Below, in pieces: positions 13,374 to 50,620 of a DNA stretch of 64,000 nt (positions within the stretch are counted from its first letter, which is position 1; each line of letters begins with the position of its first letter). The notes under the pieces were generated by a model, which ran no database searches, had not been told where the DNA came from, and saw nothing but the letters and a program-made list of their open reading frames with translations. Origin of the DNA: an uncultured Chloroflexia bacterium (GTDB taxonomy: Bacteria; Chloroflexota; Limnocylindria; Limnocylindrales; CSP1-4). Both the position numbers and the translations under genes were made by a program. The stretch lies in assembly GCA_963749705.1 (NCBI GenBank), contig CAVVNQ010000006.1, positions 64,001 through 128,000 of the forward strand, written 5' to 3'.

Positions 13374-13994
13374 TCAGTTAGCGCCGAACGCCGCCAGCGC
13401 CTCGAGCACCCTGGCGTCGCCCAGGTCGGCGGCCAGCAGCACGTGCACCCGGCCGGGCTCCGTGGCCGGCCACGTGACCACGGTCTGGCCCGTTCCATCG
13501 CTCTGGAGCACGTCCAGCCGGTGGGCCGCCGCGCCGCCGACGGTCAGCTCGCTCGTCGCCAGCTTCTCGGTCTTGCTGTTCTGGGTGGCGCCATCCCGGT
13601 AGAAGGCGAGCATCTCCGAGGCGTCGAGCCCGCCGGCCTCGAACACCGCGACGGTCAGCGCCGTGGTGCCGCCGAGGTCCCACGTCGCGCCGGCGAAGCG
13701 GACGCCCGTGATCCCGGCATCGGCAAGGGTCCCGAGCGCGCCCGTCGTGCAGTTGCGGCCCGAGTCAACGCTGACCGGCGGCTGGCCCTCGTACGCCTTC
13801 GGCAGCACCGCCTCGAGGTCCGGATAGGCGCCAGGCTGGCGTCCGTCGGTCGTGCACGGGGTTGACGGATCGAAGGTCGCGATGGGGATCTTCGAGCCCG
13901 CGCAGCCGGCGACCAGAATCGCTGCGACCAGGGCGAGGAGCGGGGCAAGAAGCTGGCCGGCCGCGAGCGGAGATCGGCGGTGGAGGCGGGGCAT
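13374..13994 (-). CDS. Hypothetical lipoprotein
   Basis: Lipobox LVAGC. TAGCCT lies 6 nt before the ATG. Confidence 0.75.
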   Translation of the reverse strand: MPRLHRRSPLAAGQLLAPLLALVAAILVAGCAGSKIPIATFDPSTPCTTDGRQPGAYPDLEAVLPKAYEGQPPVSVDSGRNCTTGALGTLADAGITGVRFAGATWDLGGTTALTVAVFEAGGLDASEMLAFYRDGATQNSKTEKLATSELTVGGAAAHRLDVLQSDGTGQTVVTWPATEPGRVHVLLAADLGDARVLEALAAFGAN

Positions 13995-14189
13995 GGATTG
14001 AGGCTACCGGCGATGACGCCGATACGCCGCCGCACGTCGGCGGCCGACCACGCCTGCTGCCCGGCACGGGCGCGGATGAGGGCCGTCCGCCGGCCCAGCC
14101 GATGGTCTCGGAGGTGCTGGGTCGATGGTCCCGGCGGTGCCTGCGTGCGCCTGACGATCGCCCATGGGGCCCCCATGACCTGCCGCCCA

Positions 14190-14218
14190 TTGCCTTTGGC
14201 CCGGGCCGGTCGTACGTT
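14190..14218 (+). promoter_or_regulatory. Sigma70-like promoter TTGCCT-N17-TACGTT with no plausible downstream CDS
   Basis: -35 at 14190-14195, -10 at 14213-14218, exact 17-nt spacer. Confidence 0.55.
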
Positions 14219-14224
14219 GACGTT

Positions 14225-14520
14225 CGCGTTCGATACGCGCCGACCCCACGAACCACCGGGGGAACACCTGGGGCGTCGGCCACGGATCGAGGGCCGGACA
14301 ACCCGATCGTCGGGGACGCTCGACGGCACGGGGGTTCCGGGTCCGCGATCACGAGCCGAGTAACCAAGGATCGACCGGCCAGCAGGCCCGGTCGTGGGGC
14401 GGCAGCACTGATCGGTCCTTCATTGGCGCCCTCGGCATATGCCGGGGGCGCAGTCATGTCCGTTGGGCGACGGGGTTCGACATGGCCGGCCTGAGCGCCG
14501 CGGCAGGCCGGTGTCGAGGG
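14225..14520 (+). ncRNA. Candidate structured ncRNA (~300 nt; 6S/Ms1-like size, family unassigned)
   Basis: Promoter upstream. Consecutive hairpins include AAGGATCGA/TCGGTCCTT, GCGCCCTCGGCA/TGCCGGGGGCGC, GTCATGTC/GACATGGC and CCGGCCTG/CAGGCCGG. Confidence 0.5.
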
Positions 14521-14551
14521 CTCAGGCCCTGCCCGGCCCGACCGGCTTCTG

Positions 14552-15310
14552 CTACCCGAACGGGTTCGAGTGCCAGCCGGGTCGGGCGGGCCGGTGAACA
14601 CGGCGGATCCCGCGGCGGTCCAGCTCGTCGCGGATGACGCGGGACGCCATCGCGATCTCGGGCTCGCGGGTGATCGTGGTCGCCAGCCAGTCGATGTACG
14701 AGGGCTCGAACGCGGCGATCTCCCCCAGCGTGTGGCCGTGGAACTTGCCGAACTCGACCTCGATCTCGAGCGCGTCGTCGAGCGAGGGAGGCTCGGGCGC
14801 CACGTGGCCCGGGAGGTGATCCCGCTCCATCGGCCCCGATGGCTGTGACGCCCGGAGCTCCGGCGCGGACCGGTCCCAGCGCAGCGGCGGCTGGCCCGTG
14901 AGCGGGATCCGCGTCCCGGGCGGCGTGATCGTCTGGTTTCGCGGCCGGACGAAGTCGCTCATGTCGAGGCGGCCGGTGACCGGTCGGGTCGGCTTCGGGG
15001 GCGGGGGTCCGGCGGACGCGCCGTTGCGCCGGCCCGGCGGGCCTGATGTCGCGCCGGCGGCCCCGCTGCCCGATCGCCGTCGCGCGCCCGCGTCGCGCTG
15101 GCCCTCGACCGTCTCGCCGGCCCGGGTGAGCGCCGCGTAGGCGGCGTTGATCTCGGCCATCCGCCGCGTGGCGCGCCGGACCGCCTCGGGATCGTCGCCA
15201 GTCAGATCGGGATGGTGCTGGCGGGCAAGCCCGCGCCAGGCGGCCTTGATGTCATCCGGGGTCGCGCCATGCTCCACGCCGAGCACGGCGTGCGGGTTCT
15301 TGGGGGCCAC
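14552..15310 (-). CDS. J-domain protein with C-terminal FGK(F/Y)xG (DUF3820-like) module
   Basis: PHAVLGV, ARQHHPD, MAEINAAYAAL; C-terminal FGKFHGHTLGEIAAFEPSYIDWL. Confidence 0.85.
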   Translation of the reverse strand: MAPKNPHAVLGVEHGATPDDIKAAWRGLARQHHPDLTGDDPEAVRRATRRMAEINAAYAALTRAGETVEGQRDAGARRRSGSGAAGATSGPPGRRNGASAGPPPPKPTRPVTGRLDMSDFVRPRNQTITPPGTRIPLTGQPPLRWDRSAPELRASQPSGPMERDHLPGHVAPEPPSLDDALEIEVEFGKFHGHTLGEIAAFEPSYIDWLATTITREPEIAMASRVIRDELDRRGIRRVHRPARPGWHSNPFG

Positions 15311-38546: not shown

Positions 38547-38622
38547 TGGCGCCCCCGGCAGGAATCGAACCTGCGACCTACCGCTTAGAAGGCGGCTGCT
38601 CTATCCGCTGAGCTACGGGGGC
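38547..38622 (-). tRNA. tRNA-Arg (anticodon TCT)
   Basis: GCCCCCGTAGCTCAGCGGATAGAGCAGCCGCC-TTCTAA-GCGGTAGGTCGCAGGTTCGATTCCTGCCGGGGGCGCCA; anticodon loop CTTCTAA, encoded CCA. Confidence 0.97.
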
Positions 38623-50543: not shown

Positions 50544-50620
50544 TGGTACCGCATACCGGATTCGAACCGGTGATCTCCGCCTTGAGAGGGCGGTGTCCTG
50601 GGCCTCTAGACGAATGCGGC
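50544..50620 (-). tRNA. tRNA-Glu (anticodon CTC)
   Basis: GCCGCATTCGTCTAGAGGCCCAGGACACCGCC-CTCTCAA-GGCGGAGATCACCGGTTCGAATCCGGTATGCGGTACCA. Confidence 0.97.

Follow-up and report, generated by a model that had tools for sequence, protein, structure and literature searches.

A single-copy, four-way-junction RNA candidate with its own promoter in one family of the Limnocylindrales

We analysed a 64,000-nucleotide (nt) stretch of DNA from an uncultured Chloroflexia bacterium of the family CSP1-4 (Limnocylindria, Limnocylindrales; assembly GCA_963749705.1, contig CAVVNQ010000006.1, positions 64,001 to 128,000 of the forward strand), referred to here as the window, and within it a 557-bp gap (13995-14551) that appears to hold a gene for a structured RNA on the plus strand. 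The gap separates two minus-strand genes: on its left lies a gene for a 206-aa protein and on its right a gene for a protein with a J domain. Several long open reading frames (ORFs) span the gap on both strands. Their third-position GC content (GC3) is 0.67-0.77, compared with at least 0.84, and mostly 0.86-0.95, for ORFs that look coding (the filter was set at GC3 > 0.82), and none of the ORFs that overlap the gap has a Pfam match. With its low GC3 and no Pfam match, the gap is without a credible coding sequence, as a preliminary description of this DNA had stated.

The gap is conserved at least as well as the genes that flank it, from near 14100 to an end that falls between 14414 and 14462. 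Using blastn, we found the stretch in 23 of the 24 other genomes of the genus, at 75-97% identity and always in matches that span about 14190-14462 and end there; the 16 sister-family genomes searched all lacked it. The remainder of the gap, from 14463 onward, does not align in most members of the genus. The preliminary description had proposed an RNA of about 300 nt that reached 14550; the RNA stands, but the length does not, since conservation ends near 14458. The predicted RNA, its parts and the elements around it are listed in Table 1.

Table 1. Window coordinates of the predicted RNA, its parts, the adjoining control elements and the flanking genes
Feature	Position	Strand	Description
Whole predicted RNA	14225-14458	+	About 234 nt; ends inferred (5' by the -10 box, 3' by the hairpin)
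P1, small 5' hairpin	14226-14238	+	GCGU/ACGC; genus-specific; invariant in 20 genus sequences
Closing stem P2/P3, 5' strand	14239-14250	+	Partner is 14393-14403
P4, small hairpin	14256-14271	+	CCGGG/CCUGG; 5' side of the junction
Rod P5-P8	14273-14361	+	Long, irregular; base conserved, outer part variable and covarying
3' junction strand	14362-14376	+	AAC (14362-14364), then a variable linker
P9, small hairpin	14377-14388	+	GGCC-AGCA-GGCC; 3' side of the junction
Closing stem P2/P3, 3' strand	14393-14403	+	Partner is 14239-14250
Single-stranded tail	14404-14424	+	Conserved: AG, about 3 variable bases, U-(C/G)-AUCG
GC-rich terminator-like hairpin	14425-14451	+	Followed by a weak U-containing tail, AGUCAUGU
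Promoter	14190-14218	+	-35 box TTGCCT (14190-14195), 17-bp spacer, -10 box TACGTT (14213-14218)
Conserved upstream block	14100-14181	.	Ends in a GGGAC-like word about 10 bp ahead of the -35 box
Non-conserved spacer	14463-14551	.	Outside the RNA
Left gene	13374-13994	-	206 aa, lipoprotein-like
Right gene	14552-15310	-	252 aa, J domain and ExoX-like C-terminal motif

The predicted fold starts from a closing stem and leads into a four-way junction with two small invariant hairpins, from which a long, irregular rod extends; the single-stranded tail and then the GC-rich terminator-like hairpin lie 3' of this fold. P1, P2/P3, P4, P5-P8, the AAC linker, P9, the tail and the 3' hairpin are common to the RNAalifold consensus of 20 genus sequences aligned with MAFFT and to the minimum-energy fold of the single sequence. 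The base of the rod, GGCGUCGGYCACGG / YCACGAGCCGAGU, is nearly invariant and includes conserved bulges and an internal loop. U14361, the last base of P5, is G.U-paired, and the invariant AAC follows it directly.

Comparison across genera yielded many paired changes in these helices. Among 40 distinct sequences, 95.1% of cells were paired, with two-sided changes in 31 of 53 pairs; among 88 distinct sequences, 91.5% of cells were paired and 35 of the 53 pairs were compensatory. In controls on the 88 sequences, slid partners were 27-45% paired, and none of 500 shuffles attained any of the measures. Two points count against reading these figures at face value: both alignments were fitted to the model, a bias in its favour, and P4 and P9 carry no double changes inside the main clade. 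As a check independent of the model, 48 diverse sequences were aligned with MAFFT and folded with RNAalifold; P2, P4, P5, the start of P6 and P9 were recovered, with 8 of 28 pairs compensatory. Helix by helix, the 88 sequences give compensatory changes in all 9 pairs of the closing stem; P4 is 98.6% paired, with one-sided variation and no double change, and P9 is 98.9% paired and nearly invariant. One genus has P9 swapped for a different hairpin, CCUCG...CGAGG.

The plus strand folds better than expected by chance over the span first claimed (14225-14550; z = -3.16, a value that 0 of 100 shuffles reached), and for the predicted RNA (14225-14458) z reaches -4.53, with 0 of 200 shuffles as good; the corresponding minus-strand values are -1.82 and -2.13. 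G.U pairs make up 10.9% of cells, two of these pairs being invariant, and because of them the same helices pair worse when read on the minus strand (81.9%, versus 92.8% on the plus strand). Judged from these comparisons, the fold is under selection at the RNA level, and plus is the functional strand. The opposite case, that there is no RNA gene here and that the gap is protein-coding or a purely DNA-level conserved element, could appeal to the long ORFs that cross it on both strands. These ORFs have neither the GC3 signature of coding sequence nor a Pfam match, indels in the RNA stretch are not multiples of three, and the changes are compensatory for helices; we consider this explanation extremely unlikely.

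The fold differs from the one drawn in the preliminary description, a chain of seven stems of which two, the 5' hairpin and the terminator hairpin, survive comparison and the rest do not. The first stem (CGCGT/ACGCG) is 92% paired in the 20 genus sequences, but it is invariant and genus-specific. The distance from the -10 box to a CTGGGG word is 45-50 nt in the window's genus and 32-40 nt in other genera; there, the columns that the model assigns to P1 are promoter, and P1 counts outside the genus are therefore to be disregarded. The fifth stem, the terminator hairpin, fared best: within the genus it is 94% paired, with compensatory changes in 5 of its 12 pairs. The second (GCCGACCCCA/TGGGGCGTCGGC) is 100% paired in the genus, but it shows no double change and drops to 64% in other genera; its 5' strand covaries instead with a distant 3' partner, one pair reading A-U in 10 genus sequences, G-C in 9 and G-U in 1, and the stem is at best a genus-level alternative pairing. 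The long rod replaces the third (TCGAG/CTCGA), whose pairing falls from 79% in the genus to 56% elsewhere, and the fourth (AAGGATCGA/TCGGTCCTT) is 46.6% paired even in the genus. The sixth and seventh fall in 14463-14551, where conservation is lacking even among members of the genus. The same region contains the GGTTCG (14474) that had been offered as one side of a 6S-like closing helix, and that helix therefore draws on non-conserved DNA.

A further pairing was noted in the window's genus. Near-repeats of UGGGGCG(U)CGG occur at 14267-14280 and 14394-14403, and the C-rich 5' strand at 14239-14248 can pair with either of them; the possible alternative conformation that results is not conserved in other genera.

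The promoter claimed for the RNA, TTGCCT-N17-TACGTT, is present, and its boxes are kept in relatives: TTGNNN-N16-18-TANNNT stands at the corresponding place in 100 of 130 distinct loci, with a spacer of 17 bp in 51 loci, 18 bp in 48 and 16 bp in 1. The sequence of the spacer is not conserved across loci, and a spacer that varies freely between conserved boxes marks a promoter and not an RNA. A generic scan for TATAAT-type promoters returned 0 sites; the assignment rests on comparison. At the other end, a hairpin occurs at the same place 3' of the core in all 133 distinct loci, with a median folding free energy of -26.7 kcal/mol (calculated without a random control), and it is usually followed by a short U-containing tail. 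A generic terminator scan found 0 terminators.

Upstream of the promoter lies a block of about 85-100 bp that is conserved in the genus and across the family. Its family consensus reads CGGTGC...GCACCTGGTACG..CGTCCCGG..GGTGCGC....GCGCCCGACCATCG....CGGGAC, and it holds repeated words of the GGTGC / GCACC / GATGGTC / GACCATC type, as well as GACCATCG. The block contains several inverted repeats and was considered as an RNA domain, but this was rejected: judged by eye, no single fold makes the changes compensatory, GCACC for example becoming ACACC or TCACC opposite an unaltered GGTGC. It is probably a DNA-level control or operator region of the RNA gene that would serve a putative regulator.

To map the distribution of the RNA, two covariance models were used. 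R1, a model of the 190-nt core, gave matches in 30 of the family's 49 genera; 83 of 151 genomes carried the RNA, each with exactly one full-length copy. R2, built from 41 diverse matches, matched 40 of 44 genomes of the window's family and none in four other families of the class (0/6, 0/49, 0/50 and 0/1 genomes); a loose threshold (E <= 5) gave only noise in other families, with E values of 0.16-4.3 in five genomes. In a phylum-wide Chloroflexota sample, all 3 family genomes matched and 0 of 147 genomes outside the window's family did so. With filters off, two of the four family genomes missed by R2 gave weak matches at the syntenic place (E 0.006 and 0.22) in which the signature words are recognisable. 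Two family genomes missed by the model, G119 and G169, gave no match beside the J-domain gene even with filters off; in their genus, the RNA can lie elsewhere.

A pattern of the invariant positions was also scanned over 185,579 species genomes. At least 118 records matched, and among the matches listed nearly all are Candidatus Limnocylindrales, uncultured Chloroflexia or Chloroflexota. When the loci of these matches were searched with the model, 89 of 100 sources matched. The 11 loci found by pattern only (record titles, where listed: Luteimonas, Pantoea, Acidobacteria, proteobacterium, Alcaligenaceae, Actinomycetota and two Chloroflexota) were rejected as homologues; they have neither synteny nor a model match and are therefore chance matches. 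On this evidence, the RNA gene is single-copy and restricted to one family. An unnamed large RNA of this lineage, one of the two possibilities raised in the preliminary description, is what the locus seems to contain: it is conserved and covarying, bounded by a promoter and a terminator, without a match in Rfam 15, and confined to one family.

The gene order in the family is methylmalonyl-CoA mutase, the 206-aa gene (minus), the RNA (plus), the J-domain gene (minus) and an alpha/beta hydrolase gene (plus). A tblastn search covered 180 loci, of which many are truncated at contig ends and some represent the same place more than once; it found the J-domain gene in 161 of them and the 206-aa gene in 137. 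The J-domain gene and the RNA converge throughout the 161 matched loci except at one place, recorded twice (L044 and L094). At that place, in genome G050, the J-domain gene is inverted and lies on the same strand as the RNA, downstream of it.

In two genomes of one genus, the RNA with its promoter and upstream block sits between unrelated genes: one copy lies between the genes for an ice-binding-like protein and an ArsA ATPase, the other between those for a hypothetical protein and adenylosuccinate synthetase. The two copies score 79.3 and 74.9 bits against the model. Since the RNA relocates together with its upstream block, the block, promoter, RNA and terminator form an autonomous unit. The move to other neighbours points to an autonomous, trans-acting gene, and the RNA is independent of the genes beside it. 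In a sister family with genomes of about 1.1 Mb (loci L200-L205), the two flanking genes share a strand and are separated by about 0-10 bp, which leaves no room for an RNA; in 6 of 6 genomes, the syntenic site lacks the entire RNA gene together with the control block.

These arrangements bear on two readings in which the RNA would depend on its surroundings. It could be a cis-antisense element of an operon of the J-domain and lipoprotein genes, acting only on the transcript of the opposite strand; the two genes are indeed adjacent on one strand in the sister family, and here the RNA runs antisense between them. This is very unlikely: the G.U pairs and the promoter indicate a plus-strand fold, the gene downstream seems to be served by a leaderless-type promoter of its own, and in two genomes the RNA and its upstream block lie away from both genes, the autonomy of the relocated unit being itself evidence against a cis-antisense role. 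A ligand-sensing or catalytic RNA, acting in trans or on itself, would account for the multi-helix junction with its invariant internal loops and junction bases. No same-strand gene follows for such an RNA to control, however, the J-domain gene being convergent in the 161 loci except L044/L094, and Rfam gives no match to a ribozyme or riboswitch family; we regard this reading as unlikely. A riboswitch or other cis leader was rejected on similar grounds, as the next gene is convergent (except at L044/L094) and the terminator-like hairpin ends the RNA. A cobalamin riboswitch was considered for the nearby gene of a B12-dependent mutase and rejected, with no Rfam signal and the wrong orientation.

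Searches for known RNAs returned nothing at the locus. At gathering scores, Rfam 15 has no match for the RNA in the window; at E <= 10 over 801 nt (13900-14700), its 4227 families gave only chance microRNA-type matches, so that 6S, Ms1 and signal recognition particle (SRP) RNA, the models named for a check at the outset, are without a match here. RNase P RNA, transfer-messenger RNA and SRP RNA were rejected as identities for the new RNA, as all three score above their cut-offs elsewhere in the genome; the preliminary description had likewise seen none of their hallmarks. The bacterial Y RNA (YrlA type) accompanies a gene for the Ro60 (TROVE) protein. This identity was likewise rejected: a genome 88% complete gave no match to TROVE, and Rfam gave none either; neither a Ro60 nor an Hfq gene was found in the genome at that completeness.

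6S RNA is rod-shaped, its long closing stem leading into a large open bubble at the centre and then a terminal stem; it binds the sigma-70 holoenzyme and templates short product RNAs. The 6S model RF00013 (gathering threshold, 46.4 bits) had no match in the window at gathering score, none in 13900-14700 at E <= 10 and none genome-wide at E <= 0.001, and canonical 6S was found in 0 of 151 genomes of the class Limnocylindria. Among 151 Chloroflexota genomes, RF00013 matches 34, most of which cluster in a few other families. These Chloroflexota 6S RNAs score 70-79 bits and share a UGAGCC...GGUUCA layout and a CCACCUG-hairpin-CAGGUUCA signature. Many Chloroflexota lineages may carry 6S-type RNAs that go undetected, or none. 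Like 6S, the new RNA stands alone, is about 180-230 nt long and comes from a single-copy gene with a promoter of its own; in outline the two also share a closing stem at the terminus, a centre that is interrupted and bears a small conserved hairpin on its 3' side, and a long stem. It is unlike 6S in that its centre is a four-way junction with the invariant hairpins P4 and P9 and not an open bubble, its closing stem has only 9 pairs, it has neither the UGAGCC/GGUUCA nor the CCACCUG...CAGGUUCA signature, its GAGCCGAG word lies in the 3' strand of P5, away from the edge of any bubble, and it is confined to one family and has no model match.

The second known comparator is Ms1 (MTS2823 / scr3559), which binds the core of RNA polymerase. 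According to PMC9130861, Ms1 is an actinobacterial RNA that adjoins a gene for a HAD-IB hydrolase; Rfam includes a model for it, RNAs of its type evade homology searches, and it was lost from small actinobacterial genomes that retain the flanking synteny. The new RNA shares with Ms1 a multi-hairpin form of 230-300 nt, the possible position of a 6S stand-in in a GC-rich lineage and the tendency to evade homology searches. The loss from small genomes with synteny kept (PMC9130861) has a parallel in the sister family of about 1.1 Mb described above. The new RNA differs in phylum, its relatives being Chloroflexota or Candidatus Limnocylindrales, and no HAD-IB hydrolase, oxidoreductase, Fic or CpaE gene lies at its locus; among the 4227 Rfam families at E <= 10, there was no Ms1 match.

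The other possibility raised at the outset, a divergent 6S/Ms1-like RNA, is not supported as a matter of family membership: there is no 6S signal, the lineage is Chloroflexota, and the synteny of Ms1, as given in PMC9130861, is absent. A true but very divergent homologue of 6S or of actinobacterial Ms1 would still explain the similar size, the loosely similar layout (closing stem, central interruption, long stem) and the fact that canonical 6S goes undetected in the class, and such RNAs are described as evading homology searches (PMC9130861). The absence of any Rfam match at E <= 10 over the 801 nt, of the Chloroflexota UGAGCC...GGUUCA layout and of an HAD-IB hydrolase at a locus outside the Actinobacteria, together with the confinement of the RNA to one family, makes true homology very unlikely.

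This leaves a new family within a general kind of RNA that is already familiar; by its sequence and distribution, the RNA would be a lineage-restricted, orphan structured small RNA. Orphan structured noncoding RNAs, such as the raiA motif RNA, have been found by comparative genomics. Like them, the new RNA is known through conservation and covariation, has a complex multi-helix fold and is restricted to a lineage; unlike them, it has a promoter, a long upstream block and a terminator that are conserved too, and it is thereby marked as a separate, trans-encoded gene. It has the features generic to stand-alone small-RNA genes: its own promoter, a terminator-like hairpin, no coding capacity and conservation. 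We found no description of this RNA in the literature, and a full-text search joining Limnocylindr* and noncoding RNA came back empty.

We propose that a dedicated sigma-70-type promoter would drive plus-strand transcription of the RNA, with a start at about 14225 and a 3' end at the GC-rich hairpin, at about 14455; that the conserved upstream DNA of about 85-100 bp probably controls its gene; and that the folded RNA would work in trans, serving as a decoy or scaffold that binds a protein. Protein binding is suggested because the strongest conservation lies in helix bases with fixed bulges and internal loops and not in long open seeds. We put the chances of a trans-acting RNA whose function is most likely to bind a protein at about even. 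The main rival is a base-pairing regulatory small RNA, in which the body would be a stabilising scaffold and the AAC linker and the U-(C/G)-AUCG tail would pair with messenger RNAs. Its own promoter, its independence of the neighbours and an unpaired conserved tail just upstream of the terminator-like hairpin all suit such an RNA. Conservation is strongest in the helices and internal loops, however, and the open segments offer only about 6 fixed bases; some 190 nt of covarying four-way-junction fold would be unusual for a seed-type RNA, and no Hfq was found in the genome (88% complete). Base pairing is thus possible, but we doubt it.

If the RNA does bind a protein, RNA polymerase is the leading single candidate, with the RNA as a functional analogue of 6S and Ms1; this assignment is tentative and, taken alone, more likely wrong than right. 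The RNA's size and layout speak for it, as does the fact that the class lacks a canonical 6S. Several observations weigh against it: there is no similarity to the 6S or Ms1 models in the Rfam search; the closing stem is short, at 9 pairs; the junction sits where the 6S bubble would be and P4 fills most of its 5' strand, so that there is no long open template strand; sister families have neither this RNA nor a detectable 6S, and thus there is no clean pattern of replacement; and the conserved single-stranded tail would also fit a base-pairing RNA. More speculatively, regulators that bind RNA polymerase may have evolved independently for a third time, after 6S and Ms1, with this RNA serving a Chloroflexota lineage whose canonical 6S was lost or never existed and being switched on through the unusually long upstream block; this is possible but improbable.

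Structured noncoding RNAs of at least 200 nt with four-way junctions and near-invariant helix cores are uncommon, and they usually belong to an RNA-protein machine or a global regulator. The gene model here is unusually complete, with a control region, a promoter, a fold supported by covariation and a terminator-like hairpin, and the host lineage is widespread, uncultured and found in soil. Were RNA polymerase the partner, control of global transcription by an RNA decoy would have arisen at least three times; were the partner another protein, the RNA would indicate a further, novel ribonucleoprotein. In either case, the covariance model is ready for use in annotating genomes of the lineage.

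Only two public sequencing runs match the stretch, each in small part, one of them RNA-seq and the other labelled metatranscriptomic but flagged as probably DNA. Short, adapter-flanked contigs cover 14239-14375 and 14247-14382 with 2-3 differences, and one further contig, from a relative, has 12 differences; no contig fell on the flanks, but this lack of cover was not used as evidence. The metatranscriptome check suggested in the preliminary description thus yielded matching contigs, but strand, ends and level cannot be read from them, and they are therefore only a weak hint of a transcript.

Full-length relatives of the J-domain protein were found in all 44 genomes of the window's family and in 6 of 6 of the sister family, and in other orders of the class the matches are at the level of the J domain only. 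The count for another family in the same search (2 of 50) includes an unpublished genome, G247, and bears on no conclusion. In the protein itself, the J domain is joined to the ExoX-like motif by a linker rich in Pro, Arg and Gly. The 206-aa protein has no match in Pfam or NCBIfam; its N terminus carries a lipoprotein-like signal (LVAGC), judged by eye from the translation. A TAnnnT box, TAGCCT, lies 6 bp ahead of the ATG of its gene (13995-14015, minus strand), and across the family such a box stands 6-7 bp before this ATG, with the minus-strand consensus GTACGCT-N6-CATG; this suggests a leaderless-type promoter of its own and a leaderless messenger RNA.

Elsewhere in the window, the sole Rfam matches at gathering score are two transfer RNA genes, at 38550-38622 and 50547-50620 (minus strand). 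The non-conserved spacer contains two hairpins specific to the window, GTCATGTC/GACATGGC and CCGGCCTG/CAGGCCGG, within 14456-14512. They sit just past the stop codon of the convergent J-domain gene, and the spacer and its hairpins may belong to the 3' end of that gene's transcript.

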